This document shows positions 26,521 through 42,986 of a stretch of DNA of 64,000 nt, piece by piece; position 1 is the stretch's first letter, and each line of letters begins with the position of its first letter. A program made the position numbers and the translations under genes. The notes below the pieces were generated by a model, which saw only the letters and a program-made list of their open reading frames with translations, made no database searches and was not told where the DNA came from. The stretch comes from an uncultured Bacilli bacterium (GTDB lineage Bacteria; Bacillota_I; Bacilli_A; RF39; UBA660), in assembly GCA_934155005.1 (NCBI GenBank), contig CAKPGR010000003.1:13011-77010 (forward strand). The letters run 5' to 3'.

Positions 26521-26549
26521 TTGATAATTATAAATTTTGGTGTTATACT
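26521..26549 (+). promoter_or_regulatory. Candidate promoter of the T4SS-like island (TTGATA - 17 nt - TGTTATACT extended -10)
   Basis: -35 at 26521-26526, TG-extended -10 at 26541-26549, then GGTGGTG RBS. Confidence 0.45.
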
Positions 26550-26585
26550 AAAAATGTAATATAAAATCGTAAAGGTGGTGAAATA

Positions 26586-26759
26586 ATGAAAGAAGCTACA
26601 GGAGAAGCAAACATGACAGTAGTAACAATTATCTTAATTGCGGCAATTGTTGCAATCGCTACACCATTAATAACTAATATGATGAATAGCACAAAACAAA
26701 AAGCGGAATGCATGAGTAATGGTGGTGTTTGGGAAAATAACACATGTAAAAATTCATAA
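26586..26759 (+). CDS. 57-aa pilin-like protein (Flp-like size): MKEATG N-terminus, hydrophobic helix, C-terminal Cys-x12-Cys
   Basis: Not in the ORF track (below the cut-off). ATG 26586 with RBS AAAGGTGGTG. Sequence MKEATGEANMTVVTIILIAAIVAIATPLITNMMNSTKQKAECMSNGGVWENNTCKNS. Confidence 0.5.
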   Translation: MKEATGEANMTVVTIILIAAIVAIATPLITNMMNSTKQKAECMSNGGVWENNTCKNS

Positions 26760-26774
26760 AATGAGGTATAAAAT

Positions 26775-27200
26775 ATGAAAGAAGCGATAGGTAGTATTCC
26801 ATTATACAATTTTATAATTATATTTATAGTCATTACCTTTGGCTTTTTATCTGCTACACTTATGTACTACAAAGCTTTCAAGTTAAATAGTAAAATAGCT
26901 TATTCCTTAGAAAAATATGAAGGGTATAATGATTTATCTTCTAAGGAAATTAATAAAAATTTGGGAACATTAGGATATCGCGTTGGTAGTACTAATGATT
27001 GTCCTGTTAAACAAGGAAATAGAATAGGTACATCAGGAATTAATTATCCTATTTGTATTTATGAAATAACTAGAAAAGATAGTGCATATTTTAATTATGG
27101 GATAATTACATATATCTATTTAGATATTCCTCTTATAGGAGGTACCTTTAAAATCCCAGTATATACTGAATCTGAAAAGATTTTTAAATTTTCAAGTTAG
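26775..27200 (+). CDS. 141-aa pseudopilin-like protein (M-K-E-A-I-G N-terminus, TM helix, extracellular domain with Cys pair); paralog of the next gene
   Basis: MKEAIGSIPLYNFIIIFIVITFGF...; conserved LGTLGYRVGS...C-x20-C...YGIITYIYLDIPLIGG block shared with the 27213 gene. Confidence 0.55.
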   Translation: MKEAIGSIPLYNFIIIFIVITFGFLSATLMYYKAFKLNSKIAYSLEKYEGYNDLSSKEINKNLGTLGYRVGSTNDCPVKQGNRIGTSGINYPICIYEITRKDSAYFNYGIITYIYLDIPLIGGTFKIPVYTESEKIFKFSS

Positions 27201-27212
27201 AGTGGTGAATTT

Positions 27213-27671
27213 ATGAGAGAAGCAATAGGAACAACATATGTACTAAATTTTATTATTGTATTTTTTGTAATATTCATTGCTTTTTTTGTTGGTAGCATGG
27301 TATATACAAAAGCTTTTAAAGTAAAAAATAAAATAATAGATATAATTGAATATTATGATGGTGAGGTAGTAGATGGATCTAATAGTTTAAAATCAGGACC
27401 ACTTACTGATATTAATAATAAATTAGGATCAATAGGATATAGAATAGCTAATAACAATCAAAATAATTGTGATAATAATAGATTTACGGATAAAGGTGGT
27501 CAAATAGTTAATAAAGGTAATTCTAATTATAGATATTGTATATATAAATTTAAAGAAAATAGAGGAACATATTATGGAGTTGTAACATATATGTATTTTG
27601 AAGTGCCAATTATAGGTGCTAAATTAGAACTTCCAATATATGGTGAAACGAGAACATTTATTAAATTATAA
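27213..27671 (+). CDS. 152-aa pseudopilin-like protein (M-R-E-A-I-G N-terminus), paralog of the 26775 gene
   Basis: MREAIGTTYVLNFIIVFFVIFIAFF...LGSIGYRIAN...C...C...YGVVTYMYFEVPIIGA. Confidence 0.55.
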   Translation: MREAIGTTYVLNFIIVFFVIFIAFFVGSMVYTKAFKVKNKIIDIIEYYDGEVVDGSNSLKSGPLTDINNKLGSIGYRIANNNQNNCDNNRFTDKGGQIVNKGNSNYRYCIYKFKENRGTYYGVVTYMYFEVPIIGAKLELPIYGETRTFIKL

Positions 27672-27684
27672 AAGGGGTGATTAG

Positions 27685-28721: not shown

Positions 28722-28769
28722 ATTTATAGAAAGCAATAAAATTATTTATTGAAATAGGAGGTTTTGTTT

Positions 28770-29141
28770 ATGTTAAATATATTAACTGATTTAACTTGTG
28801 AAGGATTAACAATCCCAGGATTAATTGTAAACTTAGTTTATTATGCTATTTTAGCTATAAAAATATTTGTACCATTAGTTTTAATTGTTTTTGGTATGAT
28901 GGATTTAGCAAAAGCTGTTATGGCACAAGATGACAAAATAATGAAAGAATCACAAAAAAGATTAATTAGTAGAATTATTTATGCTGTATTAGTTTTCTTA
29001 ATTATTTCATTAGTTCAAATGGTATTTACTTTCTTAGGAAATGCTGATAAAGATAGTGAAACAGGACAAAGTGGTTCTATGAAATGTGTATCATGTTTAA
29101 TTAATGGTAAAACAGGTGCAGCAAATAGCTGTGGTAGATAA
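28770..29141 (+). CDS. Small two-TM membrane protein, candidate T4SS pilin (VirB2/TrbC-like topology) with Cys-containing C-terminal tail
   Basis: Two hydrophobic helices separated by a conserved loop GMMDLAKAVMAQDDKIMKESQKRLISRII; own promoter and own terminator (monocistronic); ATG 28770 (the track ORF starts at an upstream TTG). Confidence 0.45.
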   Translation: MLNILTDLTCEGLTIPGLIVNLVYYAILAIKIFVPLVLIVFGMMDLAKAVMAQDDKIMKESQKRLISRIIYAVLVFLIISLVQMVFTFLGNADKDSETGQSGSMKCVSCLINGKTGAANSCGR

Positions 29142-29168
29142 GACATTAAATTGTCTTATTTTTTTTAT
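29140..29168 (+). terminator. Rho-independent terminator right after the VirB2-like gene
   Basis: aagaca/tgtctt stem, loop ttaaat, followed by ATTTTTTTT. Confidence 0.6.
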
Positions 29169-29230
29169 AAAAAAGCCATTTTAATTGAAAATAAAAGACT
29201 TTATATGTTATAATTGTTGTAGGTGATAAT

Positions 29231-30145
29231 ATGAAAAATATTAAAAAACTATCAAAAATTTTATTTTTATTCATAATATGCTTTGGATTTGGAATTAACG
29301 CAAAGGCTGCAACAAAAGCTTGCTTAATTGATAGTAATGGAAAATTATCTTGGGATGATATAAATGTTTTAAAATCCAATACAGCTGGTTATTTTGGTAC
29401 TGCTAATAAAACAAAAGCTAATTGTAAAGGATATTTAGAATTGACTTGTGTATATAAAAAAGAAGGAAGTAATAACGTAAAATGGACGTTTACTCAAAAT
29501 TCAAAAGGTGTTAAGAAATTAATTAACCAGGATGGAAAAGAAGCAGAAGCTTCTAAAAAAAATCAATTGACTTTTCCAGGTGATGATTGTCGTACGAAAG
29601 TATACTATGTTAAGGAAGACTGTGGAAAAGGAATTTTTAAAGATGGTTCGTCAAAAGGATGGACTTGGTTAGATATTAGAAAATGTGAAAGCAATCAATA
29701 CAACACTTATACTCTTGTAACGGAAGAAAGTAAGAGTGATACTGATGCAACAGTTATTAACAATGGTCAACATAAGGTGGATACTAAAGAGGATATTATT
29801 AATAAAGATAATTCTTCAAATTCAACTCCATCGACTGCTGATCCGATAACTTCTTGTGATTCTTTGCCTAAGACAATGGAATTGTTAAAGAAGATATATA
29901 ATTTTCTAAAATATATGGTCCCAGTTATAATAATAGGACTTGGAATGTTAGATTTTATAAAAGCTATAACAAGTGATGATGAAAAAGTATTTAAAGAAGC
30001 TTGGAATAAATTGATGAAGAGAATAATTGTAGGAGTTATAATTCTTATTTTGCCAGTAATATTAGAATTTTTAATAAATATAAGTGGAGTAATTAATGAA
30101 GAAGGATTAGACAAAAATAATTTATTCTGTATATTTACAAAATAA
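29231..30145 (+). CDS. Secreted/membrane protein: signal peptide, Cys-rich extracellular domain (8 Cys), C-terminal two-helix domain paralogous to the VirB2-like gene
   Basis: Signal peptide MKNIKKLSKILFLFIICFGFGINAKA; C-terminal GMLDFIKAITSDDEKVFKEAWNKLMKRIIVGVIILILPV aligns with GMMDLAKAVMAQDDKIMKESQKRLISRIIYAVLVFLI of the 28770 gene. Confidence 0.55.
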   Translation: MKNIKKLSKILFLFIICFGFGINAKAATKACLIDSNGKLSWDDINVLKSNTAGYFGTANKTKANCKGYLELTCVYKKEGSNNVKWTFTQNSKGVKKLINQDGKEAEASKKNQLTFPGDDCRTKVYYVKEDCGKGIFKDGSSKGWTWLDIRKCESNQYNTYTLVTEESKSDTDATVINNGQHKVDTKEDIINKDNSSNSTPSTADPITSCDSLPKTMELLKKIYNFLKYMVPVIIIGLGMLDFIKAITSDDEKVFKEAWNKLMKRIIVGVIILILPVILEFLINISGVINEEGLDKNNLFCIFTK

Positions 30146-30224
30146 AAGCAATTAATATTTTATATTGCTTTTTTTTATGTTATAATATAAGGGTAATATT
30201 GTAATTAAAAATGGAGGTAATAAT

Positions 30225-32300
30225 ATGAATGCATCTTTCTTTATGGACGGGGTCAGAAATTTATTTGGTTTAATCGATTCTGGAATATATAATTTAATAT
30301 CAATAGTTTACGAATTAATCATTAAATTATCTAATATAACTTTTTTCTCAGAAGCTAATATAAGAGAATTTAGGGATAGAATTTATGTATTCTTAGCTGT
30401 TTTTATGTTATTTAAAGTTACAATTTCATTAATTACATATTTAGTTGATCCCGATTCTATGGGGGATAAAACTAATGGAATAGGCAATGTTGCTAAAAAT
30501 GTTGTTATTACCTTATTTTTAATTATTATTGTACCTTTTGGATTTGATTTATTATATGAAGCTCAAAATGCTATTATAAGTGATAATTTAATTCCAAGAG
30601 TTATTCTTGGTACTAAGGGTGATGGAAGTAATGTTAATGAATCTTATACAATGGATCCTAATGCTTGTAAAGATGGTGATACATTCGTTACAACAACCAT
30701 TAATAGTGATGGCGATTTAATGGCTTATTTGGCTTTTAGACCATTTTATCAAACATATAAAGATGCTGATATTTCAAGCATTAAAAATGATTATTGTTCT
30801 GCTAATAGTGTTTCAAACTTATTAACTTCGGATATTTATAATGCTGAATCAGGAACTCATAATAGTGGTCAATATTTAATTAATTATCAAATACTTTTAT
30901 CAACAGCATGTGGTATTTTAGTCTTTTTATTACTTTTGAACTTTGCATTTGATATAGCTGCAAGGACAATCAAATTAGGATTCTTAGAGATTATTGCTCC
31001 TATTCCAATTTTGTCTTATATAGATCCTAAATCAGCAAAAGATGGACCATTTAAAAAATGGTTATCAGAAGTAGGAAAAACATGGGCTAGTTTATTTATT
31101 CGTTTAGCCATTGTTTATTTTGCAATATATGCAATAAAATTAATTCCATCCGCACTTGAAGAAGCCAAAGATGAAAATGGTATATGGGTTTCATTATTCT
31201 TACTTATCGGTATATTAATATTTGCTAAAAATGCTATACCACTTATTGAAAACTTATTTGGAATTAAATTCGATCATACAGTTCAATTAAATCCATTTAA
31301 GAAAATAAGTGAACAAGCATTAGGAGGAACAGTAGCCGCTGGACTTGGAGCAGCAGCACTTGGAAGTGGTGCTAGTGGTATTTCACAAGCTGCATCAAAT
31401 GGGTATAATTTTGCAAGAAATAAGCAAAATTTAAAGAAAGCTATAGATTTAGAAAAAGACGAAGGAAAAAAAGCAAAATTGCAACGACAATATGATTCAA
31501 TGAATGCTAGAAAATTTGTTGGAACAACATTTGGTGGACTTGCTGGTGGAGCTTTAAATGGTGCTAAGTCTGGTTATGCAACTGGAGCCAAAGGAAGTGG
31601 AAATGTATTTAAAAATGTTAAAGATGATTTAAAGAAGGGAAATACAAGTAGAAATAATAGACAAAATATTAGTGATTACAATAGAGAAGCAAGATGGCAA
31701 TTTGATAAAACAAGTAAAGAATTGAATGAGGAAAGAGAAGCTATTTTAAATGATAGTAGTTTAACATCTGAGCAAAGAAAAGAAAAATTAAATAATATAG
31801 CTGAAAAAATTATTAAAAATAAAAATAATTATGATAATGCACGTTATGGTTGGGTTGAAAGAAATATTACAGAAAATCTTGACAAAAATTCAGGAGTTAA
31901 AAATGATTTTGGTGGTTATGGATATTACAACAAAAAGATTGAAAAATTAAATAAGGATATTGAAAATAATGATCAAAGAGAAGCAGCATTTAGGACATCT
32001 TTATCACAATTCTGTGTTTCAAATTCAATTGATCAACTTGCAATTGAAGAATTACATAAGAAATTGGTTGATGCTAGAACCGAAAGTAACGCTACTATAA
32101 AAGCAAATATGATAGCACAAGCTTATACAGAAATAAGTACTAAGCATAATATTGATAGCGATAAGCTTAAGAATTCCTATGCTAGTGTTGAAACAACATT
32201 AAATAATATTGATACAGTTGATGAACAAACTAAACAATTTAAAGCAGAGAGAGCTAATTATAAAGAAATGATGGCAGCTCGTGAAGATGTAAAAAAATAA
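30225..32300 (+). CDS. VirB6-like polytopic membrane protein (TcpH/ConG/Tn916 Orf15-like) with long C-terminal soluble coiled region
   Basis: 691 aa; at least 6 TM helices in the first 350 aa, then a charged helical C-terminal half; position upstream of the VirB3-VirB4 pair. Confidence 0.55.
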   Translation: MNASFFMDGVRNLFGLIDSGIYNLISIVYELIIKLSNITFFSEANIREFRDRIYVFLAVFMLFKVTISLITYLVDPDSMGDKTNGIGNVAKNVVITLFLIIIVPFGFDLLYEAQNAIISDNLIPRVILGTKGDGSNVNESYTMDPNACKDGDTFVTTTINSDGDLMAYLAFRPFYQTYKDADISSIKNDYCSANSVSNLLTSDIYNAESGTHNSGQYLINYQILLSTACGILVFLLLLNFAFDIAARTIKLGFLEIIAPIPILSYIDPKSAKDGPFKKWLSEVGKTWASLFIRLAIVYFAIYAIKLIPSALEEAKDENGIWVSLFLLIGILIFAKNAIPLIENLFGIKFDHTVQLNPFKKISEQALGGTVAAGLGAAALGSGASGISQAASNGYNFARNKQNLKKAIDLEKDEGKKAKLQRQYDSMNARKFVGTTFGGLAGGALNGAKSGYATGAKGSGNVFKNVKDDLKKGNTSRNNRQNISDYNREARWQFDKTSKELNEEREAILNDSSLTSEQRKEKLNNIAEKIIKNKNNYDNARYGWVERNITENLDKNSGVKNDFGGYGYYNKKIEKLNKDIENNDQREAAFRTSLSQFCVSNSIDQLAIEELHKKLVDARTESNATIKANMIAQAYTEISTKHNIDSDKLKNSYASVETTLNNIDTVDEQTKQFKAERANYKEMMAAREDVKK

Positions 32301-32316: not shown

Positions 32317-32637
32317 ATGAATAATACATATTTAATACCAGCTAATAGTAAAAAATCATTAATGATATTTGGATTATTTTATCCATTTGATTTAATGCTA
32401 TTTGGTACAGGACTAGGTATAACATTACTTTTACTTATGGTACTTCCACTTGAAAGTTTAACAATGTCTATTATTGCCATAGCTCCTGGGTTAGTTACTG
32501 GATTACTTGTTTTTCCAGTCCCTAACTACCATAATCTATTAACTGTTTTAATGGAAATTTGGATATTTTTTACAACAAGGCAAAGATATGTATGGAAAGG
32601 TTGGTGTGTGAATAATGGCGAAAGCGATAAAAAGTAA
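32317..32637 (+). CDS. VirB3-like small two-TM protein (Tn916 Orf17/ConD/PrgI analogue)
   Basis: 106 aa, two TM helices; immediately upstream of and overlapping the VirB4 N-terminal fragment. Confidence 0.5.
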   Translation: MNNTYLIPANSKKSLMIFGLFYPFDLMLFGTGLGITLLLLMVLPLESLTMSIIAIAPGLVTGLLVFPVPNYHNLLTVLMEIWIFFTTRQRYVWKGWCVNNGESDKK

Positions 32638-33163
32638 ATATACAAATGAAAGTTTTGTACCAGTTAAAAGTATTACGAATGGTATGATAATTTTAGATAA
32701 TAACGAAAAAGTTTGTGGTATTAAAATAATGCCAAGAAATATTTTTATAGCAGATTATGATACACAAAATGCTATAATAGCTAATTTAAAAAATGTTTAT
32801 AATATGATAGATTATGAATTCTGGATTATTGCAGCTGATAGACCAGTTGATATCAATGTTTTCTTATCACAACTTCAACTTTTATATAATTCAGTTAGTG
32901 ATCAAGCTAAAAGAAAACTAATAATGGAAGATATAAATAAAGCTAATTTATTTATGAATAACAATATTGTTGATACTGAATATTTCTTACTATTTAAAGA
33001 AAAAAATCAAGATACAATACAAAAGAGAATTAGACAACTTATTAATGCTTTTGCAAGTGCTGGATTAAATTCTCATCAAGTGTCTAATGAAGATTTAAGA
33101 ATTATATTAGATAACTTCTTAAATGGTGGACAAACTACTACATTTGGGACGGTGATTGGATAA
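32615..33163 (+). CDS. VirB4-family ATPase, N-terminal domain fragment (split gene, part 1)
   Basis: 182 aa; FVPVKSITNGMIILDNNEKVCGIKIMPRNIF resembles the N-terminal domain of Gram-positive VirB4 proteins (Tn916 Orf16/TcpF/PrgJ); stop overlaps the next start as TAATG. Confidence 0.6.
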   Translation: MAKAIKSKYTNESFVPVKSITNGMIILDNNEKVCGIKIMPRNIFIADYDTQNAIIANLKNVYNMIDYEFWIIAADRPVDINVFLSQLQLLYNSVSDQAKRKLIMEDINKANLFMNNNIVDTEYFLLFKEKNQDTIQKRIRQLINAFASAGLNSHQVSNEDLRIILDNFLNGGQTTTFGTVIG

Positions 33164-34947
33164 TGGATATAAAAGCTCAAATAGCGCCTAAGGGACTAGA
33201 ATTTAAACCAAGTAGTTTTATTATTAGTGATAAATATGCAACTATTTTAACAGCTATATCTTATCCAAGATATATAAATCCAGGATATTTATCATCTTTA
33301 ACTAGTATGTCAGGTATCAAAGTTGTTATAAAACATATACCACTTCCATTTAGTTCAATTAGTAAAATGTTAAACAAAGAAATAGCTGACTTAAAGCAAA
33401 GATATCAAGAAGAACATGATAGAACACTTCAAGAAAGAATTAGACAAGATTATGAATCACTTGAACAATTTATTCAACAATTAGCTGCTTCACAATCAAA
33501 AATTTATGACTTTCAAATGCATATCATGATTACGGCTAATAGTGAAGAAGAATTAAATAGTAAAAAATTTCAAGTAAAAAATTATTTAGAAGCGATGGAA
33601 ATTAGAGCTTTACCACTTAGATTTGAACAAGAAAAAGTTTTAAAATCTATATTACCAATATATGAAAAACAAGATATTGAAGATAGAATAGGTACACCAA
33701 TTCCATCACCAACACTAGCAGCAATGTATCCTTTTATATTTGATAGTATCAAAGATCCAGGACTTTCAACTTTACTTGGAGTTGATTTCTCTGGTGGAGT
33801 TATTTTATTTAACCAATTCTTATATCAAATAAAAAAAGAACACAATCGTAATAATGCTAACATGATTATTTTAGGTACATCTGGTAGTGGTAAATCAACA
33901 GCAGCTAAAATATTACTTAGAACACATATTAGAAACAATTGTCAACTAGTTTTAATTGACCCAGAAGGTGAATTAGAAGAAATGACAAAACGTTTTGGTG
34001 GAGATTTTATTGATTTAGGTAAAGGTGGAGAATTCGGAATGATAAATCCACTTGAAGTTGTAATCGATGCTGATGAAGATGAAATAGAAAATGGTTTAGG
34101 TTATACTGTTTTAACTAGAACTCTTCAAAGTGTAAAAGCTTTTATGAAATATTATGATCCATCAATTGAAGAAGATGTACTTAATATGTTTAGTGAAGTT
34201 TTACAAGAAACATATAGAAGATTTGGAATTAGCTTCGAAGCTGATTTTACTAAGTTTACTTCAAGAGATTATCCAACTTTTAAAGATGTTTATGCAACAA
34301 TTCGTGGTCGTCTTACATCAATGACAGAAAAAACACAAGAAAGAGATGTAATGGAAAGACTAGAACTTAAAATAAGACCAATAGTAAAAGAATTAAAATA
34401 TTACTTTGATGGCCATACAACTATAACAAGTTCTAGTGATTTTATAACATTTAATATTAGAGAAATTATGAATGCTGATGAAAATATTCGTAATGCTTTA
34501 TTCTTTAATATATTAAAATATGCATGGGGATTAACTTTAAATAAAAATGTTAATACTATTTTACAAGTAGATGAAGCTCATGTATTATTGTCAGGAAATA
34601 ATACTCTTGGGGCTGACTTTTTAGCGCAAATTCAAAGACGTTCTAGAAAATATAATACTGGAACAATTATTATAACTCAACAACCAAGTGATTTCTGTGA
34701 TCCACATGTTATAACACAAGGTAAAGCTATATTTGATAATGCATCATACTATTTAGTTATGGGTCTTAAAAAACAAGCTGTTGAAGACTTAGCTAAATTA
34801 GTTGATTTAAATGATAATGAAAAAGAGAATATTAAAGGATTTAGTCAAGGAGAAGCATTACTTGTTTGTGGTTCTAGAAGAATGCGTATTAATATTATTG
34901 CTACTGAGCAAGAATTAGATTCATTTGGAAGTGGCGGAGGATTTTAA
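33163..34947 (+). CDS. VirB4-family ATPase, central and C-terminal ATPase part (split gene, part 2)
   Basis: 594 aa; Walker A ILGTSGSGKST (about nt 33880), Walker B ILQVDEAHVLL; about 20 aa sampled across this ORF follow the VirB4 pattern. Confidence 0.8.
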   Translation: MDIKAQIAPKGLEFKPSSFIISDKYATILTAISYPRYINPGYLSSLTSMSGIKVVIKHIPLPFSSISKMLNKEIADLKQRYQEEHDRTLQERIRQDYESLEQFIQQLAASQSKIYDFQMHIMITANSEEELNSKKFQVKNYLEAMEIRALPLRFEQEKVLKSILPIYEKQDIEDRIGTPIPSPTLAAMYPFIFDSIKDPGLSTLLGVDFSGGVILFNQFLYQIKKEHNRNNANMIILGTSGSGKSTAAKILLRTHIRNNCQLVLIDPEGELEEMTKRFGGDFIDLGKGGEFGMINPLEVVIDADEDEIENGLGYTVLTRTLQSVKAFMKYYDPSIEEDVLNMFSEVLQETYRRFGISFEADFTKFTSRDYPTFKDVYATIRGRLTSMTEKTQERDVMERLELKIRPIVKELKYYFDGHTTITSSSDFITFNIREIMNADENIRNALFFNILKYAWGLTLNKNVNTILQVDEAHVLLSGNNTLGADFLAQIQRRSRKYNTGTIIITQQPSDFCDPHVITQGKAIFDNASYYLVMGLKKQAVEDLAKLVDLNDNEKENIKGFSQGEALLVCGSRRMRINIIATEQELDSFGSGGGF

Positions 34948-34969: not shown

Positions 34970-36592
34970 ATGAATGAAGATTTAGATGATTTAGAAATAA
35001 TTGATTTAGAAGAAGAACCTGAAAAAGATAATATTGTCATAGATGAAGCAACATTACCTAAAAAGGAAGAATCTAAGGAGCAACCAAAAGAAAAACCAAA
35101 AAAAGAAGAATATCATAATTTTAATTTACCTAAAATAAATAGAGGTAAAAATGATAATTCTTTAAATCAAAAAAAAGATAATTTAGATAACGGAAATAAT
35201 AATTTAAATAAAGAAAATAGTAATTTAAATAATAGAAAAAATCCATTAGGTAATAATTTTTTAAATAAAAATAATAATACTGAAAAAAATACCATAAATA
35301 AATTAAATAATATTAGAAATACAAATAGAGTTATACCGCCAATTAATAGTCAAACTTTAAGTAATCAAAGTACTGAAAATAACGATTCTAAAGAAGAAGT
35401 TAAAGAAAATATAGACAAAAAAATTGGTGGAGCGGCTTTAACAGCTGCTACTGGTGGCGCTGTAAGGGGAAAGCAAGCGGAAAAACTATCAGGATTTTTT
35501 AAAGAAGCTATTAAAAAAAATTTTAAATTAAAAATTATGCTTATAGCTGCTATTTCTGTTATTGTATTTATATTATTAATTATACTTTCATTTGGAGCAA
35601 GCAGTGATAGTGGTTTAGGTAAGGATACTAATAGTTATATTACTGGGCAAATGACTGATGATGAATTATATGATGAATTAAGTTATTATGGTTACTGTAA
35701 AGATAAAAGTTCATGTAAGAAAAAAGGTGTTTATAAAGTATTTACAAAATTAAAAAATCTATCAGAAGAATACAAAAAGCCTTGTAGTAATGTTTCAAAT
35801 AATAAACCATGTGGTGTTAATTTAAATACAGGATTAATTATTGAAACAATTAATTATTATCGTAATTCATCTGATCAATTTGATTTAGTAGAATTAACAG
35901 ATGAAGAAGAACAAGATGAAAATGTTTTGAAAAAAATGATAGGAAATGTAAAAACATATTTTAAGAGAAAAAGTGAATTAAATAGTTTACTTGATGATAT
36001 TGATAATCTTGCTCTAGCACAAGCTGAATATGTAGAAAATAAATGCGGTAATAAATACTATCAAATAAGTTTTAATAAATATATTTCATATTTAAAATAT
36101 GGAAATACGAGTACACATCCAAATTATAGTGGTAATTCAGTTTCTGTTGATACTTGTTCTGGACCTAAAAATGATTATATACAAACATCATATAATCAAG
36201 ATGGAAATACTAATATAACATCAATAACAGGGTCAGGCGTTGGTACCGAAATTGTTAATTATGCCTTACAATTTGTTGGGGGTAAATATGTATGGGGTGG
36301 TACAGATTTAAATAAAGGTGTTGACTGTTCAGGATTTACTATGAAAGTTATGGAACATTTTGGAATAAAATTACCTCATAGTGCTAAAGCTCAGCTTACA
36401 GCAGGTGGTACAAATGTTGGAACAGATATTACCTTAGCTTTGCCAGGGGACTTGATTATTTATAATGGACATGTTGCTATATATATGGGTAATAATCAAA
36501 TAGTCCATGCGGCAGATGAAAAACATGGTATTATTGTTTCTAAGAATGCTTCATATTCTAAAATAAAAGGAATTGTTAGATATTGGAACTAG
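34970..36592 (+). CDS. T4SS-associated cell-wall hydrolase: disordered Asn/Lys-rich cytoplasmic N-terminus, one TM, C-terminal NlpC/P60 domain
   Basis: C-terminal DCSGFTMKVMEHFG...GDLIIYNGHVAIYMG...HAAD gives the Cys-His-His triad of NlpC/P60; TM IMLIAAISVIVFILLIILSF. Confidence 0.8.
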   Translation: MNEDLDDLEIIDLEEEPEKDNIVIDEATLPKKEESKEQPKEKPKKEEYHNFNLPKINRGKNDNSLNQKKDNLDNGNNNLNKENSNLNNRKNPLGNNFLNKNNNTEKNTINKLNNIRNTNRVIPPINSQTLSNQSTENNDSKEEVKENIDKKIGGAALTAATGGAVRGKQAEKLSGFFKEAIKKNFKLKIMLIAAISVIVFILLIILSFGASSDSGLGKDTNSYITGQMTDDELYDELSYYGYCKDKSSCKKKGVYKVFTKLKNLSEEYKKPCSNVSNNKPCGVNLNTGLIIETINYYRNSSDQFDLVELTDEEEQDENVLKKMIGNVKTYFKRKSELNSLLDDIDNLALAQAEYVENKCGNKYYQISFNKYISYLKYGNTSTHPNYSGNSVSVDTCSGPKNDYIQTSYNQDGNTNITSITGSGVGTEIVNYALQFVGGKYVWGGTDLNKGVDCSGFTMKVMEHFGIKLPHSAKAQLTAGGTNVGTDITLALPGDLIIYNGHVAIYMGNNQIVHAADEKHGIIVSKNASYSKIKGIVRYWN

Positions 36593-36600: not shown

Positions 36601-37224
36601 ATGAATGAAACATTAAAAAGAAAAATTCTTATTATTTCTTTTTTACTACTTACTGTTATATTCCTTTTCTTTATAATTTTAAACAATAAAAAAAATAAAA
36701 TGAATACATTTGATGTTAATAGTGAAAATGTTGATTATATTGATAATTTTCTAATTAATTTAGAAAGTAATTTAAAAGAAAAAAATATTGATTTTGTAAG
36801 TGAAAAAGCAAAAAATAAAGATATATATTCAATTCTTGTTGTAATGGAAGATAGTGATGAAGATATAAAATCAAATAACTATTTATCATATAACATAAAT
36901 ATAAAAACAAAAAAAGTTATGAATAATGAAGAGGTTGCTAATTCATTTGGGTATTCATTAGATGATATTTTTAAAGCAATAAATAAAAGACTAGAAGATT
37001 TATATCAAGATGAGATAAAAGAAGGATTTGTAGAAAAAAATGAATGTGACTTTGAATGTTATAAATCTTATTATAGAGGAATTGAAAATATAGAAGATAT
37101 TTATAGTTTATACGTTAAAGATAATAAACTATATATTTATGTTTCAATTAAGGTTATATCAGCAGCATCTGATGAAGATTATTTCAAAAAGTTAAATTAT
37201 AATCCATATAAAATAGAGCTATAA
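36601..37224 (+). CDS. Bitopic membrane protein (N-terminal TM plus about 170-aa soluble domain); possible VirB8-like component
   Basis: Topology and position (after the hydrolase, as Tn916 Orf13/TcpC/ConB) only; no motif recognised. Confidence 0.3.
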   Translation: MNETLKRKILIISFLLLTVIFLFFIILNNKKNKMNTFDVNSENVDYIDNFLINLESNLKEKNIDFVSEKAKNKDIYSILVVMEDSDEDIKSNNYLSYNINIKTKKVMNNEEVANSFGYSLDDIFKAINKRLEDLYQDEIKEGFVEKNECDFECYKSYYRGIENIEDIYSLYVKDNKLYIYVSIKVISAASDEDYFKKLNYNPYKIEL

Positions 37225-37237: not shown

Positions 37238-38755
37238 ATGAAAAGATTTTATAAAATAATAGATAAAATAAATATATCATTATTTGTTTTTCTTTTCATA
37301 TTCTCTTTTTCATATTTTCTACCTAAAAATATAGTCATTTCAAAAAAAATATATTTAGATAAAAATTCATTCATAAGCCAAATGTCAGAAGCTGCCGTAC
37401 AAGATATGAAAGAAACAGGTGTATTTGCTAGTGTTACAATTGGACAAGCAGCAGTTGAGTCTGGTTGGGGAAAAGATGAAATTTCAACAACTTATAATAA
37501 CTATTTCGGTATGAAAGCTGGAGGAGATATATATGTAAATGGTATTAAAACAAAATGTGACTCTAGTAATAGAAAAGTTATTGGTAAATCTAATAATCAA
37601 AATTCCTTTTGGGGTGGATATGCTGTTTGTTTATCTGCATCAGAAGGTGGGGGATCATGGTTTAGAGTTTATGATAGTGTTTTAAATTCAATTAAAGATC
37701 ATTCTAGAAATTTTTGGTGTAATACTAGTGGTAGATATATAAAAAATGGTGTTTTTGCATCACCTAATCCAGAAGTTCAACTTTATACTATTGCTAAGTC
37801 AGGGTATGCTGTTGATGGTAGTGGTAATATTACAACTATCGGTGGTCTTAGATATGACCAACATATATATCAAAAAATAATAATTCCAAATAATTTAACT
37901 AAATATGATAATGTGTATCAAAGTGGAGTTAAACCGGCATATGCAGAGACTTGTACAGATGCCGTTTATACAGGATCAACTCCTACTATTGATACATCAT
38001 CTTCATCTAATTTAAATGGAGTTAGTGATTTTAAAACAACATATAGTGGAGATGTAAAAGAAGGATATATTTATAAAACACAAAAAAATAATGCCTTAAA
38101 AGTAACAGAAAAAACAGTTACTGAAAAAATAGATGAAAATATAAATTCCATTATAAAAAGTATATTTACAACGACAGGTGAATATTCTGATGGAAAAATA
38201 GGCGCTAGTGCATATACGGCAAATGTTACATATGTAAATGGTAGTTTTAAAAATAAAGTTGTTTATTATAATCAAAATGATTATAAAAGTTATCCATATG
38301 GTAGCTATGGTACTATAGCATCTCATGGTTGTGGTACAACATCAATGGCAATTGTTATTTCTAGTTTTTTAGGAAGAGAAGTAAGTCCTGTTGAAACTAC
38401 TAATTGGGCATGTTCAAATGGTTATTGTACTTCTAGTGGATCTTCTCACTCTGTAATTCCAGGACTTGCAGCACAATATGGATTAAATAGTACTAATGAA
38501 ATATCTTCAAGTTCTAATTTACAACCAGTTGTCGATGCCCTAGCAAGTGGTAATTCGTTAGTTGTTGTTTTAGCTAAGTCAGGAGAATTTACAAATAGTG
38601 GTCACTTCCTTGTTTTGACAGGAGTTGATGCAAGTGGTAATATTTCAGTAGCAGATCCTGCAAGTAGAAAGAAAACAGAAAAAACATATACATTAGATTT
38701 CTTAATAAATCCAACACAAGGACATATCGTTAAATTCTGGATTATAAGTGGGTGA
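37238..38755 (+). CDS. Secreted bifunctional peptidoglycan hydrolase: N-terminal GH73 glucosaminidase-like domain plus C-terminal papain-like (CHAP/C39-like) domain
   Basis: Signal/TM N-terminus; GVFASVTIGQAAVESGWGKDE...YNNYFGMKAGG (GH73 signature); C-terminal ASHGCGTTSMAIV...SGHFLVLTGVD (Cys-His dyad). Confidence 0.7.
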   Translation: MKRFYKIIDKINISLFVFLFIFSFSYFLPKNIVISKKIYLDKNSFISQMSEAAVQDMKETGVFASVTIGQAAVESGWGKDEISTTYNNYFGMKAGGDIYVNGIKTKCDSSNRKVIGKSNNQNSFWGGYAVCLSASEGGGSWFRVYDSVLNSIKDHSRNFWCNTSGRYIKNGVFASPNPEVQLYTIAKSGYAVDGSGNITTIGGLRYDQHIYQKIIIPNNLTKYDNVYQSGVKPAYAETCTDAVYTGSTPTIDTSSSSNLNGVSDFKTTYSGDVKEGYIYKTQKNNALKVTEKTVTEKIDENINSIIKSIFTTTGEYSDGKIGASAYTANVTYVNGSFKNKVVYYNQNDYKSYPYGSYGTIASHGCGTTSMAIVISSFLGREVSPVETTNWACSNGYCTSSGSSHSVIPGLAAQYGLNSTNEISSSSNLQPVVDALASGNSLVVVLAKSGEFTNSGHFLVLTGVDASGNISVADPASRKKTEKTYTLDFLINPTQGHIVKFWIISG

Positions 38756-38759
38756 TTAG

Positions 38760-39446
38760 ATGAAAAAAATAAAATTATTAATGTGTAGTATTTTTATCAT
38801 AATGTTAACAGGCTGTAATACTGATTATACTATTAATGTAAATAATGATTTATCAGTAGATGAAAAAGCTTCCATTGAAGAAACATATTACTATTTTGAA
38901 GAAAATTATACATATTATCATAGCAGTGAAGTTTTAGATCTTTTATGGGATCAATTTAGTGATAAATACAAAGATAATAGTTATACATACACACATAATA
39001 GTAGTGAAACAGGAATATATGTAAAAACTAGTTATAAAAATATAGACGAATTTGTTAATAAAAATAAAATATATAATCAGTTTTTTGAAAAAATTGATTA
39101 TACAAAAAAACAAAATCAAATAACACTAGAAACAAAAGGTGAGTTTTATCCATATAATGAACAAGATCCAGAAAAGTTTGCTATCGAATCTACTAAAATT
39201 AATATAGTAGTACCATTTAAAGTTATATCTAATAACGCTGATCAAGTAAGTGGTAATAAATATACATGGTATATTAATAAAGATACAAAAGATAAAAAAA
39301 TTAAAATTACATTTGATACTTCTAATAGTCAAATAAAAAAACAATCAAAAAATTATTATTTGATTATTATTGGAATAGGAATATTTATTGGTATTATTAT
39401 TTTATATATTAGTTATAAAATAAAAAGAGCTGATAATGAAATATAG
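38760..39446 (+). CDS. Lipoprotein with C-terminal TM anchor
   Basis: Lipobox IIMLTGC at the N-terminus; C-terminal hydrophobic helix LIIIGIGIFIGIIILYI. Confidence 0.55.
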   Translation: MKKIKLLMCSIFIIMLTGCNTDYTINVNNDLSVDEKASIEETYYYFEENYTYYHSSEVLDLLWDQFSDKYKDNSYTYTHNSSETGIYVKTSYKNIDEFVNKNKIYNQFFEKIDYTKKQNQITLETKGEFYPYNEQDPEKFAIESTKINIVVPFKVISNNADQVSGNKYTWYINKDTKDKKIKITFDTSNSQIKKQSKNYYLIIIGIGIFIGIIILYISYKIKRADNEI

Positions 39447-39455
39447 GAGGTTTTT

Positions 39456-41435
39456 ATGAAATTAAAATTAAAAGCAGAAGCAAGAGATTGGATTATTTTC
39501 GTTATATATGCCGTTTTTCTATTTTTCTTGATTTGTGTTGCTGTTGTAAATTTAGGAACGTTTGCAACTGAATCAAGATTTTCAGGATTTAATCCTTTCT
39601 TAGCATTTCAAAGAGATTATATTGGACCAACAATGGTATTTTACCTTGGTGCTTTAATAGCTTCATTTGTTAGTGTTCAAAATCATTTTTTTGAGAGAGA
39701 AAAAGGAATTGGATTTAGTGTAGGAGCAAAAAAGGAAAAAGGATACTCAAGATGGGCTACTGATAAAGAATTTAAAAAGGATCTAGAAAAAATATTACCC
39801 GATCAAGAAAAATGTGAAAAAGGTGGTATTCCTTTAATTAATAGTGGAAAAGAAATTTGGGTTGATCCAAGTGGATATCATAATATGATTATAGGATCAA
39901 CAGGATCAGGTAAATCACAAGCTATATCAAAGCCATTTATTAGAGTTATGGCCAAGGCAGGAGAATCAATGATTGTAACCGATCCAAAAGGAGAACTTTA
40001 CGAAGATACTTCACTTGAATTAAAAGCAAGAGGATATAACATAATTGTTTTAAACTTCCGTGATCCTCAAAAAGGTAATTGTTGGAATCCATTTTCCTTA
40101 CCATATAAATTATACAAAGAAGGAAACATTGATAAGGCAACTGAATTACTAGAAGATTTAGCAAAAAATATTCTATATGATGAATCAAGCAAAGGTCAAG
40201 ACCCATTTTGGGAAAATACATCAGCTGATTATTTTACAGGATTATCACTTGCTTTATTTGATGATGCTAAGGAAGATGAAATAAATATTAATAGTATAAA
40301 TTTAATGAGTACAGTTGGTGAAGATAAAATAGGTGGTACAACTTATATAAAAGAATATTTTAGTGATAAAGATCAATCTAGCGGTGCTTATGTAAACGTT
40401 TCAAGTACTTTGATGGCTCCTAGTGATACAAAAGGAAGTATTTTATCAGTATTTAAACAAAAAATAAAATTATTCTCATCACGTGAAAATTTGTCTGAAA
40501 TGTTATCACATAGTGATTTTGATATTGAAGATATTGGACGTGAAAAAACAGCTGTTTTTATTGTTATTCAAGATGAAAAAAAGACATATCATCCATTAGT
40601 TACAATTTTCTTAAAACAATGTTATGAAACATTAGTTAGAGTAGCTCAAGAAAATGGCAGTAAACTTAAATATAGAACTAATTTCTTACTAGATGAATTT
40701 GCTAATATGCCTCCTTTAACAGATGTTGATGCAATGGTTTCAGCAGCGCGTTCTAGAAATATTAAATTATCATTTATCATACAAAACTTCTCACAATTGA
40801 ATGATGTTTATGGTAAAGAAAAGGCAGAAACAATAAGAGGTAACTGTGGTAATACAATTTATATTTTATCAACAGAACTTTCAGCATTAGAAGAAATTAG
40901 TAAGATGTGTGGAGATGTAAAATCTAAAAAAGATGATAAGACTGATTCGAGGCCATTAGTTACTGTTTCTGATCTTCAAAAACTAAAAGAAGAAGAAGCT
41001 ATAATTTTAAGATCAAGAATGAATCCTTATAAGACAAAATTAAAATTTGATTATAAAATTGATTGGGGTAAAAAATACGAAAAAGCTAAATACCCAAATA
41101 GAGAAAAGATTAAAGTAACTACTTTTGATTTAAAAGGATATGTTAATAAAAAAAGAGATAAGAAAATAAATGACATGTTAGGTGGAAATTCTTCTAAGAT
41201 TCCTTCTATGCCAAATATATTCGGACCTAAACCAGGTGCACCTGATTTAGATAGCATAGTAAAAAGGATAGATGCTAAAATAGCTGAAATGGAAGCTGAA
41301 GAAAGAAAAGAACAAGAAAAAAGACAAGCTAAAAAACAAGTCACACCTGAACAAAAAGAACAACCTAAAAAAATTAATCTTGAAGAAGTTACTGATGATC
41401 AATTCTTTGATGATTTCTTTAATGATGAAGAATAG
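39456..41435 (+). CDS. Type IV coupling protein, VirD4/TraG/TcpA-like ATPase with N-terminal TM helices and acidic/aromatic C-terminal tail
   Basis: Walker A MIIGSTGSGKSQ (about nt 39900), Walker B FLLDEFANMPP; two N-terminal TM helices; C-terminal EEVTDDQFFDDFFNDEE. Confidence 0.8.
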   Translation: MKLKLKAEARDWIIFVIYAVFLFFLICVAVVNLGTFATESRFSGFNPFLAFQRDYIGPTMVFYLGALIASFVSVQNHFFEREKGIGFSVGAKKEKGYSRWATDKEFKKDLEKILPDQEKCEKGGIPLINSGKEIWVDPSGYHNMIIGSTGSGKSQAISKPFIRVMAKAGESMIVTDPKGELYEDTSLELKARGYNIIVLNFRDPQKGNCWNPFSLPYKLYKEGNIDKATELLEDLAKNILYDESSKGQDPFWENTSADYFTGLSLALFDDAKEDEININSINLMSTVGEDKIGGTTYIKEYFSDKDQSSGAYVNVSSTLMAPSDTKGSILSVFKQKIKLFSSRENLSEMLSHSDFDIEDIGREKTAVFIVIQDEKKTYHPLVTIFLKQCYETLVRVAQENGSKLKYRTNFLLDEFANMPPLTDVDAMVSAARSRNIKLSFIIQNFSQLNDVYGKEKAETIRGNCGNTIYILSTELSALEEISKMCGDVKSKKDDKTDSRPLVTVSDLQKLKEEEAIILRSRMNPYKTKLKFDYKIDWGKKYEKAKYPNREKIKVTTFDLKGYVNKKRDKKINDMLGGNSSKIPSMPNIFGPKPGAPDLDSIVKRIDAKIAEMEAEERKEQEKRQAKKQVTPEQKEQPKKINLEEVTDDQFFDDFFNDEE

Positions 41436-41479
41436 TAACAAATTTTAGTATTTAACATATAATATTTTAGGGTGATTAT

Positions 41480-41767
41480 ATGGTATCCAATATATCTGTT
41501 GATGAAATAGATAAAATTAATGGAATTAATATAATTGATATTAGAAGTATACAAAGTTATAATAATAATCATATTCCAAATGCAATTAATATCCCATACG
41601 AGAAATTATTAATAAATTTTAGAGAATATCTATCTTCAAATCAAAAATATATATTATATTGTCAAAAAGGTTTTACTAGTAAAAGATTATGCCAAATATT
41701 AAATAATTATGGTTATAAAACAATAAATCTAGAAGGTGGATATGAAGAATGGATAATGAAGAATTGA
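41480..41767 (+). CDS. Single-domain rhodanese-like protein
   Basis: 95 aa; active-site loop YCQKGFTSKR. Confidence 0.6.
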   Translation: MVSNISVDEIDKINGINIIDIRSIQSYNNNHIPNAINIPYEKLLINFREYLSSNQKYILYCQKGFTSKRLCQILNNYGYKTINLEGGYEEWIMKN

Positions 41768-41807
41768 AAAAATTCTTCTTTTTTTGTATAATGAAATTGG
41801 TGATAAA

Positions 41808-42986
41808 ATGCGAAAAAAAATAATTATTATTTTAATAGCCGTACTTTTAAGTTTTTCTATATATAAAATATATAGTTACATTAGAATAAAAACAGCTAAA
41901 ATAGAAATTGTTTTAGTTGATGATTTAAAATTAGAATTTAATGAAAAAAAGAAAGTATCTGATTTTATAAAATCAATAAATGGTAAAATAACTGATGACT
42001 ATATTATTGATTCAAGTAAATTAGGTAAAAAAGATGTAAAATTTGAATTTATAAACAATGATAATATAAAGTTACAATATACTTTTCAAATAGAAGTTGT
42101 TGATACGGTAAGTCCACTTATATGGTTAGGAAATAATTATAATGTTAAGGTTGGTAGTGATATTGATTTAACAAAAAAAATATTATGTGGCGATAATTAT
42201 GATTCAAAACCTAAATGTTATATTGAAGGAGTCTATGATTTAAATAAAGAAGGTAGTTATGATCTAGTATTTAAAGCAGAAGATAATAGTGGCAATATTG
42301 AAGAAAAAGCTTTTACTTTAAATGTATATGAACCAGTTCAAAATGATAACAAAATAGAGCCTGTTTATACTAATTTTAATGAAGTAAAAGAAAATTATAA
42401 AAATGATAAAACAGTAGTAGGGTTAGATATATCTTCACACCAAGGTGAAATAGATTTTAAAAAATTAAAAGAACAAGGTGTTGAATTTGTTATGATTAGA
42501 GTTGGCTATGGCTATAATTCTAAATATACACTTGATAAAAATTTCAAAAAAAATATAGAAGAAGCAAACAAAAATAATATTAAAGTTGGAATCTATTTTT
42601 ATTCATATGCTAAAACTAATAAAGAAGCAATTAATGATGCTAAATGGGTTTTAAAACAAATAAAAAAATATAAAGTTGATTTACCAATTGCCTTTGACTG
42701 GGAAGAATGGGCTAATTTTAATGAATATAATTTATCATTCTTTGGACTTACAAACATGGCTGATGTTTTTATAAAAGAAATAGAAAAAAATGGATATGAT
42801 GGTATGCTTTATAGTAGTAAAACTTATCTAGATAATATTTGGCTGGAAAATGATTATGATATTTGGTTAGCACAATACAATAATAAAATAACATATACTG
42901 GTGCTGTCAAAATGTGGCAAATATGTGATAATGGTAAAATAGATGGTATAGATAAAACTGTTGATATAGATATTATGTATAAATAA
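41808..42986 (+). CDS. Membrane-anchored GH25 muramidase (lysozyme) with N-terminal TM and middle beta-rich domain
   Basis: C-terminal VVGLDISSHQGEIDFKKLKEQGVEFVMIRVGYG...VGIYFYSYA...FDWEEW (GH25 signature); ATG 41808 with extended -10 TTGTATAAT upstream (the track ORF starts at a TTG inside the promoter). Confidence 0.7.
   Translation: MRKKIIIILIAVLLSFSIYKIYSYIRIKTAKIEIVLVDDLKLEFNEKKKVSDFIKSINGKITDDYIIDSSKLGKKDVKFEFINNDNIKLQYTFQIEVVDTVSPLIWLGNNYNVKVGSDIDLTKKILCGDNYDSKPKCYIEGVYDLNKEGSYDLVFKAEDNSGNIEEKAFTLNVYEPVQNDNKIEPVYTNFNEVKENYKNDKTVVGLDISSHQGEIDFKKLKEQGVEFVMIRVGYGYNSKYTLDKNFKKNIEEANKNNIKVGIYFYSYAKTNKEAINDAKWVLKQIKKYKVDLPIAFDWEEWANFNEYNLSFFGLTNMADVFIKEIEKNGYDGMLYSSKTYLDNIWLENDYDIWLAQYNNKITYTGAVKMWQICDNGKIDGIDKTVDIDIMYK

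Follow-up and report, generated by a model that had tools for sequence, protein, structure and literature searches.

A chromosomal type IV secretion locus without a linked relaxase, conserved across RF39-type gut Bacilli and suggestive of use by the cell itself

A type IV secretion system (T4SS) locus was analysed in a 64,000-nucleotide stretch of DNA from an uncultured Bacilli bacterium (GenBank assembly GCA_934155005.1, contig CAKPGR010000003.1, positions 13,011 to 77,010), which is termed the window hereafter and in which the locus occupies positions 26,521 to 42,986. The apparatus is encoded on the chromosome, inherited vertically and shared across the lineage of RF39-type genome-reduced gut Bacilli; it is not a mobile island, and comparison with known systems suggests that it may be a T4SS repurposed for the cell's own use. 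The reading favoured here, to which a moderate degree of probability is given, is that of a domesticated monoderm T4SS serving the RF39 cell itself, in parallel with the relaxase-less chromosomal T4SS of Patescibacteria. RF39 is an entirely uncultured order (PMC9606305), and it is described as genome-reduced with many auxotrophies in work cited by PMC12306168. No publication connecting RF39 with a T4SS was found in the literature that was searched.

The distribution of the locus was followed through its VirB4 ATPase, with one genome scanned per species. Relatives of this VirB4 were found in at least 568 species-representative genomes, the best 80 of them sharing 79-92% identity, and the carriers are labelled as uncultured Bacilli, 'Tenericutes' or Mollicutes gut metagenome-assembled genomes (MAGs), which are RF39-like where checked. 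One of these carriers, Ca. Fimihabitans intestinipullorum, belongs to the GTDB order RF39 (PMC8035907). The RF39-type VirB4 proteins constitute one full-length cluster in a 50%-identity library, the next matches being found at 44% and 42% and all others at no more than 34%. The nearest named relatives are members of the Erysipelotrichales with 33-34% identity, and none of the plasmid homologs exceeds 29-31%.

Gene order was compared across 82 fetched related loci and was found to be conserved, beginning with CpaB/RcpC, a CpaF-type ATPase, two polytopic proteins, a small pilin and two minor pilins. These are followed by a 335-amino acid (aa) protein, one to six VirB2-like pilins, VirB6, VirB3, a TrsD-like protein, VirB4 and one or more hydrolases, and then by a lipoprotein or other bitopic proteins, VirD4, a rhodanese and, usually, a DedA/VTT gene, rmuC and a DUF2238 gene. 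The open reading frames (ORFs) are intact across all 82 loci. Among the loci examined, the setting between tex and a penicillin-binding protein (PBP) gene, in which the cluster lies in the window, is restricted to same-species contigs, and it reflects a chromosomal rearrangement that also split the locus from its upstream half, not the insertion of a whole block.

Co-divergence with the flanks and the pattern of selection are in line with vertical descent. Pairwise identities of VirB4 correlate with those of RmuC with a Pearson coefficient of 0.78, as do those of RmuC with the DUF2238 protein (0.78), the latter two being neighbours outside the T4SS, and the median identity is 82% for VirB4 versus 73% for RmuC. 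The G+C content at third codon positions (GC3) amounts to 0.108 in the cluster versus 0.109 in the rest of the window, whose overall G+C content is ~25%. The ratio of nonsynonymous to synonymous substitution rates (dN/dS) is 0.05-0.13 for core genes, with 0.05 for VirB4, 0.047 for the TrsD-like protein and 0.09 for both VirD4 and the 335-aa protein, compared with 0.059 for RmuC, while it rises to 0.42 in VirB6, 0.48 in the lipoprotein and 0.59 in the small pilin; dS is rough in such AT-rich DNA, and it is the comparison from gene to gene that counts. The Walker A motif is intact in 83 of 83 VirB4 and 76 of 76 VirD4 orthologs, as well as in every CpaF-like ortholog. Purifying selection acts on the ATPases with the same strength as on neighbouring housekeeping-type genes, and the surface parts, comprising the VirB6 tail, the lipoprotein and the pilins, evolve fast, the pilins having multiplied in addition.

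The genes expected of a mobile element were looked for in the window and beyond. Pfam searches, which covered 51 of the 54 window ORFs of at least 100 aa (the other three, at 56682-57149, 60463-61089 and 61775-62326, are short ORFs of the downstream flank), revealed neither a relaxase (MOB) family nor a recombinase or integrase domain. For the genes called ~8-10 kb past either window end, the precomputed Pfam annotation lists no relaxase or recombinase, and none occurs among the flanking families that recur in at least three of the 82 related loci, which were the flanking ORFs submitted to Pfam. Genes for SSB, a protein that binds single-stranded DNA, or for a primase are neither close to the locus in the window nor recurrent across the 82 loci, and no replication genes are linked to the T4SS. 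Transfer RNA (tRNA) genes are absent from the window, the cluster borders display no att-like repeats (only AT-rich repeats at chance level) and no bounding inverted repeats, and the recurrent flanking families contain no transposase. The cluster is surrounded by housekeeping genes over 26 kb upstream and 21 kb downstream inside the window and also ~8-10 kb past each end; the rest of the window includes gatAB, a locus with an EssC protein like that of type VII secretion systems (T7SS), three VanY paralogs, serS, fpg, dinB, argS, clpC and iscS.

The preliminary description of this DNA had regarded the cluster as an orphan island and had proposed a degraded or cis-mobilisable element, a relaxase recruited in trans, or a T4SS repurposed for non-conjugative use. 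Its statement that relaxase, recombinase and replication genes are missing holds for the range covered above, no relaxase or integrase is annotated just outside the window, and the tex and PBP borders proved free of attachment repeats. The island itself and the degraded or cis-mobilisable element are not supported, because the locus occurs in so many species in a conserved order, diverges together with its flanks and has a host-like GC3. Neither of the hallmarks of an integrative and conjugative element (ICE), namely a patchy, insertion-like distribution and an atypical composition, is seen. The block is essentially conserved core in its relatives, its position between tex and PBP being species-specific, and with this the island reading falls; of the three options, repurposing for a non-conjugative use fits best.

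The features of the locus and its borders are given below in window coordinates; the promoter and terminator assignments are consensus matches only.

24285-26429: tex, the upstream border of the cluster
26447..26466, no strand assigned: terminator-like hairpin 3' of tex at the upstream edge of the transcription unit (consensus scan only, weak)
26521..26549, plus strand: promoter-like site TTGATA-17-TATACT with TG, 5' of the first pilin gene (a suggestion only, such matches being no more frequent than chance in this AT-rich DNA)
26586..26759, plus strand: 57-aa small pilin-like protein with the leader MKEATG, a hydrophobic helix and a Cys-containing tail
26775..27200, plus strand: 141-aa minor-pilin-like protein with the same leader and one N-terminal transmembrane (TM) segment
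27213..27671, plus strand: 152-aa minor-pilin-like paralog with the shared leader and one hydrophobic helix
27685..28692, plus strand: 335-aa cytoplasmic protein with an N-terminal alpha/beta domain and a domain of ParA/MinD-type (SIMIBI) NTPase fold whose Walker A is degenerate
28764..29141, plus strand: 125-aa VirB2-like T4SS pilin with two TM helices and a Cys-rich tail
29231..30145, plus strand: 304-aa protein with a signal peptide, a Cys-rich ectodomain and a C-terminal VirB2-like pilin domain
30225..32300, plus strand: 691-aa VirB6-like protein, polytopic (five or more TM segments), with a long hydrophilic C-terminal tail
32317..32637, plus strand: 106-aa VirB3/PrgI-like membrane protein directly 5' of the VirB4 genes (weak to moderate support)
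32615..33163, plus strand: 182-aa TrsD-like protein, the separately encoded N-terminal domain of VirB4
33163..34947, plus strand: 594-aa VirB4 ATPase, C-terminal motor part (Pfam AAA_10 3e-11, P-loop_TraG 6e-11)
34970..36592, plus strand: 540-aa membrane-anchored NlpC/P60 peptidoglycan endopeptidase in a VirB1-type role (Pfam 5e-19)
36601..37224, plus strand: 207-aa bitopic protein with an RsiV/DUF3298-like ectodomain, between two hydrolase genes
37238..38755, plus strand: 505-aa secreted protein with glucosaminidase and papain-like (C39_2) peptidase domains (Glucosaminidase 1e-18, Peptidase_C39_2 6e-17)
38760..39446, plus strand: 228-aa lipoprotein anchored at its C-terminus by a TM segment, a surface component that evolves fast
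39456..41435, plus strand: 659-aa coupling protein of the VirD4 type, bearing two TM segments at its N-terminus and an acidic tail
41480..41767, plus strand: 95-aa single-domain rhodanese (Pfam 2e-18)
41784..42986, plus strand: 400-aa GH25 muramidase (Pfam 8e-28)
43057..43098, plus strand: two terminator-like hairpins closing the co-directional block (consensus match)
43315-45243, minus strand: class A PBP gene, the downstream border of the cluster

Every cluster gene between tex and the class A PBP gene is located on the plus strand, in line with the same-strand cluster of the preliminary description, and the gene set is that of a monoderm (MPF-FATA-type) T4SS as it had proposed, with VirB4, VirD4, VirB3/PrgI-like and VirB6-like genes beside virB4, and a VirB1-type hydrolase. 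Its VirD4-like coupling ATPase is borne out by the Pfam domains T4SS-DNA_transf (2e-57, well over the cut-off), TrwB_AAD_bind (5e-26) and TraG-D_C (4e-24), and this protein shares no more than 31% identity with any plasmid homolog. Its split VirB4 is likewise confirmed, since the 182-aa protein matches positions 99-276 of the NCBIfam model VirB4_plasma, an 894-aa Mycoplasma-ICE VirB4 model (1e-15), and the gene ends in a stop codon that shares letters with the ATG of VirB4 (TAATG). A precomputed PF26593 TraC-like match is also recorded for the 182-aa protein, whose profile hidden Markov model (HMM) matches a 227-aa protein upstream of the VirB4 of plasmid pBMB68 (4.5e-20). The idea that VirB4 is pseudogenised was ruled out, given that the TrsD-like gene is present in 82 of 82 loci and the two-gene layout with overlapping stop and start recurs in all of them, on pBMB68 and in an ICE of Thomasclavelia ramosa. 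The same TrsD/VirB4 arrangement has been described in PMC12102498, and to judge from these sequence relationships the separate TrsD-like gene is an ancestral arrangement and not a broken VirB4.

The VirB6-like gene was likewise anticipated and is supported by the topology of its product and by a match of its family profile to the protein in the VirB6 position of the Thomasclavelia ICE (hhalign 97.4%, E 1e-11). It also has sub-threshold NCBIfam matches to conjugal-transfer membrane proteins of Mycoplasma ICE (1.7e-6 and 2.4e-5) and a weak match to the TrbL of pBMB68. For the VirB3-like gene, the proposal gains weak to moderate support from matches to a PrgI-family protein (E 8e-4; E 1.7e-4, prob 49.5%) with which it shares an N-terminal YLIPxNxK motif. 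The two VirB2-like pilins (28764-30145) had been overlooked in the preliminary gene list, together with the module at 26586-28692 that precedes them. They belong to one family, 32 of whose 80 members match PF18895 T4SS_pilin with a best value of 1.6e-6; the 304-aa protein itself matches PF18895 at 0.002 and the NCBIfam Mbov_0395 pilin-like conjugal transfer protein at 0.016, and one to six such paralogs are present per locus in the relatives. In many related loci, DUF6273 proteins (family f17) are located within the arrays of VirB2-like pilins, and a 340-aa protein with an N_methyl prepilin signal and DUF6273 is encoded ~7 kb past the right end of the window in the same species (L087:2672-3694, minus strand), which hints at a link between this protein and the pilin arrays.

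The first four cluster genes (26586-28692) represent a type-IV-filament module, consisting of a small pilin, two minor pilins and a protein of ParA/MinD fold. The gene for the 57-aa small pilin is also called in same-species contigs, its leader motif M[KR]E[AS]xG is found in 24 of 25 orthologs, and the protein shares 82% identity with the product of a 62-aa gene that follows the CpaF and membrane-protein genes in the related locus L092. An antisense ORF of 96 aa (26543-26833, minus strand) overlaps this gene and the start of the next; it recurs in relatives only through conservation of the sense genes and is most likely not a gene. The leader motif is present in 97 of 120 members of the 141-aa minor-pilin family, and the 141-aa protein exhibits 40% identity with its 152-aa paralog and weak matches to DUF4320/Tad families. 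The 335-aa protein, which has no Pfam, NCBIfam or PDB sequence match, belongs to a family of 6,802 members (90%-identity clusters), none of them annotated. In its AlphaFold2 model the C-terminal domain reaches a pLDDT of about 85 and resembles MeaB, HypB, ParA and MinD in Foldseek (E 2.5e-4 to 1e-2), while a weak HMM match (0.025) leads to the AAA ATPase between SAF and CpaF on pBMB68. On the basis of this model, the protein is a candidate for a TadZ/CpaE analogue; an assignment as TadZ from sequence was rejected, as no matches were obtained, and the predicted structure has a general ParA/MinD (SIMIBI) fold, with TadZ not among the top Foldseek matches.

In most relatives the module extends upstream with CpaB/RcpC (Pfam 6.5e-8), a CpaF-type T2SSE ATPase (2.5e-25, named CpaF in the source annotations) and two polytopic proteins that occupy the TadB/TadC position. 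The latter could not be identified as T2SSF or TadB/C proteins, for there is no Pfam or PDB support and the assignment is one of position and topology only. In L092 this upstream half covers ~9 kb (1521-10808) and encodes proteins of 524, 215 and 976 aa, DUF5411, CpaB/RcpC, the CpaF-type ATPase and the two membrane proteins. A prepilin peptidase gene was not observed in any of the loci. In a close relative, an ORF6N/Rha-type (phage antirepressor-like) gene lies between the membrane-protein and pilin genes (L003:2354-3262), and in L019 a member of the same family separates virD4 from the rhodanese gene, which shows that small insertions are tolerated in the locus.

All three peptidoglycan hydrolases of the preliminary description are recognised by Pfam, but the GH25 muramidase, found in only 3 of the 82 related loci, is a species-specific neighbour outside the conserved system. 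The hydrolase slot varies among relatives, which carry M23 and CHAP domains or a glucosaminidase. The bitopic protein of 207 aa, for which a VirB8-like (NTF2-fold) identity had been proposed, displays instead an RsiV/DUF3298-like fold in a confident predicted model (pLDDT 90.5), by which the VirB8-like identity is ruled out. Only 12 homologs of it were retrieved from a collection of 5.8 billion proteins, and sequence profiles of this protein and of family f21 gave no PDB match. RsiV binds lysozyme, and one could guess that the 207-aa protein may bind or regulate a neighbouring hydrolase because it is flanked by two hydrolase genes. The lipoprotein is confirmed by a lipobox (G18-C19) that is near-invariant to invariant, and its family is found just upstream of virD4 in 52 loci. 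In 62 related loci the rhodanese gene stands 3' of virD4 and is then usually followed by rmuC.

Known conjugation systems provide the closest comparisons. Plasmid pBMB68 of Bacillus thuringiensis (NZ_CP010581.1, MOBP, annotated as conjugative) carries the same composite of a T4SS and a CpaB/CpaF-type module, in the order MobP3 relaxase, VirD4, TrbL, PrgI, 227-aa protein, VirB4 and NlpC/P60, and, at some distance, DUF5411, SAF/CpaB, AAA and T2SSE ATPases and a pair of membrane proteins that lack annotation. The RF39 profiles match pBMB68 proteins one to one (local HMM E-values at a nominal database size of 5,000), in the T4SS part with 2.5e-85 for VirD4, 2e-87 for VirB4/DUF87 and the values already given for the TrsD-like and PrgI proteins, and in the pilus part with 5e-32 for SAF/CpaB, 4e-38 for the T2SSE ATPase and 4e-8 and 7e-11 for the two membrane proteins; NlpC/P60 and the DUF5411 gene before CpaB also have counterparts. 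In contrast with the RF39 locus, pBMB68 encodes the MobP3 relaxase directly upstream of VirD4 together with replication and primase genes, places the T4SS before the pilus module and has no annotated VirB2-like pilin array, and the proteins share only about 27-31% identity.

The nearest named VirB4 relative (~34% identity) is encoded by an ICE of Thomasclavelia ramosa (loci L084-L086), whose core follows the RF39 order with a 704-aa VirB6-like, a 121-aa VirB3-like and a 225-aa TrsD-like protein, a 606-aa VirB4 and a glucosaminidase-type hydrolase. Unlike the RF39 locus, this ICE encodes SSB and a Toprim primase as well as a large serine recombinase and SpaA pili of the sortase-dependent kind, and the pilin and type-IV-filament genes of RF39 are all missing from it. 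At L084:16636-21821 it ends in the serine recombinase ~2.7 kb from the tex gene of that genome; that both this ICE and the T4SS in the window are adjacent to tex is probably a coincidence. The Mycoplasma ICE (ICEA/MICE), with VirD4, VirB6-like and VirB4 proteins encoded by CDS5, CDS16 and CDS17, belongs to hosts of a related genome-reduced Bacilli lineage, and models based on it are the best database matches for the TrsD-like, VirB6-like and pilin-like proteins of RF39, which follow the same gene order (Mbov_0395-0396-0397). The RF39 proteins fall far below the curated NCBIfam cut-offs of these models (56.6 vs 590 and 27.6 vs 90). MICE differs from the RF39 locus in being mobile, multi-copy, bounded by inverted repeats and equipped with a DDE transposase, and it is devoid of VirB1-like hydrolases, whereas RF39 possesses a cell wall and hydrolases. 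Taken at the level of sequence, these relationships indicate that the RF39 machine descends from monoderm conjugation machinery of the kind that comes with a relaxase or recombinase on plasmids and ICEs, and that it either lost its DNA-processing and integration genes or was never linked to them.

The filament module resembles Tad/Flp (type IVc) systems in the CpaB/RcpC, the CpaF-type T2SSE ATPase and the two polytopic proteins in the TadB/TadC position of the relatives, and also in combining a small pilin with two larger pilin-like proteins of common short leader and a ParA/MinD-fold protein. It deviates from them in its leader, M[KR]E[AS]xG with E, S or T as the next residue instead of the Flp-type G/xxxxEY, in the missing T2SSF signature of the two membrane proteins and in the missing prepilin (TadV) peptidase; the window differs further in that the half with the CpaF ATPase is absent from it and its extensions.

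The nearest functional parallel is offered by Patescibacteria, which harbour chromosomal, mostly relaxase-less MPF-FATA-derived T4SS with TrsD, PrgI, VirB6, arrays of 2-11 divergent VirB2-like pilins and hydrolases downstream of virB4 (PMC12102498, PMC12857230; see also Wang et al. 2023, as cited in PMC12857230). This T4SS is essential to the epibiotic growth of Southlakia epibionticum (PMC12102498, Quinonero-Coronel et al. 2025; PMC12857230). According to a 2025 review, VirB2-like subunits and a cell-essential T4SS, possibly also the building of a pilus, have so far been unique to Patescibacteria among monoderms, and non-conjugative T4SS functions in Gram-positives are a long-standing open question (PMC12857230). 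The RF39 locus is similar in being a monoderm MPF-FATA-derived set that is chromosomal, lineage-wide and without a linked relaxase in a genome-reduced lineage, and similarly has a separate TrsD-like gene before VirB4, PrgI/VirB3, VirB6, arrays of divergent VirB2-like (PF18895) pilins and hydrolases downstream of virB4. It differs in belonging to another phylum (Bacillota), in a VirD4 that is tightly linked and conserved and in the CpaB/CpaF-type pilus module fused to the locus. A sister relation to the Patescibacteria VirB4 clade was considered and is unsupported: the nearest named representatives are Erysipelotrichales, and Patescibacteria are absent from the named top VirB4 representatives. 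The RF39 T4SS thus apparently originated independently of that of Patescibacteria, a reading based on the identities of nearest representatives and not on a phylogeny, and it would apparently be a second lineage-wide domesticated monoderm T4SS, separate from theirs.

A domesticated machine of this kind could be envisaged to work as follows. The hydrolases would open the cell wall, VirB3, VirB6 and TrsD/VirB4 would form a membrane channel, the VirB2-like pilins would build an external fibre or conduit, and the type-IV-filament module would aid contact with a partner cell. VirD4 would feed a macromolecular substrate to the channel or receive one from it, so that the bacterium itself would benefit, through contact with a bacterial or host cell next to it, from an exchange in which nucleic acids or other macromolecules are acquired or effectors delivered. 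The spread of an element would not be served. A broader version can be advanced only tentatively, namely that the whole RF39 order depends on a core relaxase-less T4SS with its VirB2-like fibre and type-IV-filament module, attaching to partner cells (gut bacteria or host) and exchanging or extracting macromolecules. The strategy of Patescibacteria would then have evolved a second time, independently, and for the first time in classical Gram-positives.

Several points weigh against a domesticated machine. Its VirD4 is kept and conserved, as would also be the case in a DNA-transferring system, whereas the type IV coupling protein of Patescibacteria is usually unlinked and dispensable (PMC12102498). 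The relaxase scan covers the window and ~8-10 kb per side and leaves room for a relaxase elsewhere in the genome. Transfer of chromosomal DNA is mediated by the related machinery of Mycoplasma ICE (PMC12857230), and the missing linked relaxase is therefore insufficient by itself to exclude DNA transfer. All genomes concerned are MAGs, and the figure of at least 568 species is a lower-bound count and not a percentage of RF39, the RF39 placement itself resting on relatives such as Ca. Fimihabitans. Moreover, the upstream half with CpaB and CpaF was not found in the window or the ~8-10 kb extensions (about 82 kb) of the window's species, so that either it lies elsewhere in this species or the pilus part is incomplete there; as the remaining pilin genes are intact, it is probably located elsewhere in the genome. 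Database matches do not single out the right CpaF ortholog, since members of this family are so alike (80-95% identity).

The main rival is a chromosomally fixed conjugation machine, which would export DNA to other RF39 cells, either as a Mycoplasma-like chromosomal 'sex' or in mobilising other elements, with a relaxase that is encoded elsewhere or unrecognised. It gains from the conserved and linked VirD4 with its full T4SS-DNA_transf, TrwB and TraG-D_C domains, from the closest characterised relatives, which are all conjugative, and from the NCBIfam links to the Mycoplasma ICE proteins, whose machinery moves chromosomal DNA as well; rmuC, a recombination-associated gene, is furthermore a conserved neighbour. 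Yet neither relaxase, SSB, primase nor recombinase is found near the locus in the window or recurs across the 82 loci, the locus is retained in single copy, in synteny and order-wide in reduced genomes with dN/dS ~0.05 where selfish conjugative elements would be patchy, and multiplied divergent VirB2-like pilins are a feature of host-interaction T4SS, all of which leaves this explanation rather unlikely. A dedicated, competence-like import of nucleic acids, in the manner of ComB of Helicobacter or Ced of Sulfolobales, would feed nucleotides to cells that do not synthesise them. It would accord with the type-IV-filament module attached to the locus, with the reported lack of de novo nucleotide synthesis in RF39 (PMC13155120) and with T4SS-like tubes that have been connected, in a Patescibacterium under cultivation, with the uptake of RNA from its host (bioRxiv 10.64898/2026.06.21.733656), whereas the essentiality of the Southlakia T4SS is independent of ComEC-mediated transformation (PMC12857230). 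No ComEC or DNA-receptor gene was seen in the RF39 locus, and the proposal, being purely inferential here, is deemed improbable. ComB-type uptake systems are not known to include VirD4, which the RF39 locus has.

The two remaining explanations treat the locus as an ICE in one state or another. A decaying remnant that has lost relaxase and integrase and drifts towards loss would account for the absence of mobility genes, for the upstream half missing at the locus in the window's species and for the variable hydrolase and lipoprotein slots, but ORFs intact in 82 loci, Walker A motifs preserved in all VirB4 and VirD4 orthologs, the low dN/dS of the core genes and a VirB4 more conserved than RmuC render it very improbable. 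An ordinary ICE or island newly inserted between tex and PBP, with relaxase and integrase just beyond the window, could draw on the tex/PBP setting, which among the loci examined is unique to this species; it is contradicted by the housekeeping genes that surround the cluster inside the window and past both ends, by the want of att-like repeats and tRNA genes, by the host-like GC3 and by the presence of the same cluster in hundreds of related species, and it is the explanation given the least credence of all.

Some further observations concern the surroundings of the locus. A T7SSb-like secretion locus occupies positions 4838-14432 of the window and has the same layout in the same-species contigs L089 and L090; it contains a 1525-aa EssC-like FtsK/SpoIIIE ATPase (6736-11313), a DUF4176 protein (11596-11934) and an 817-aa protein with a weak transglutaminase-core match, with several small unannotated ORFs upstream (4838-6701). 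Three tandem paralogs of VanY-type D-Ala-D-Ala carboxypeptidases (224, 357 and 314 aa) follow on the minus strand at 14725-17581. In the same-species contig L087, a 68-aa gene (8037-8243) has a precomputed Pfam match to SSPI, a small acid-soluble spore protein; the lineage is generally held to be non-sporulating.

The analysis suggests that a domesticated machine like that of Patescibacteria is a conserved and strongly selected feature of RF39, a widespread and never-cultured gut order. If confirmed, it would provide a molecular handle on the lifestyle of RF39, with regard to partner dependence, attachment and the acquisition of nutrients or nucleic acids, and a marker locus for the order, and it would constitute a second natural experiment in the exaptation of conjugation machines. 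For the annotation of MAGs, the locus shows that a relaxase-less T4SS is not necessarily the remains of an ICE.

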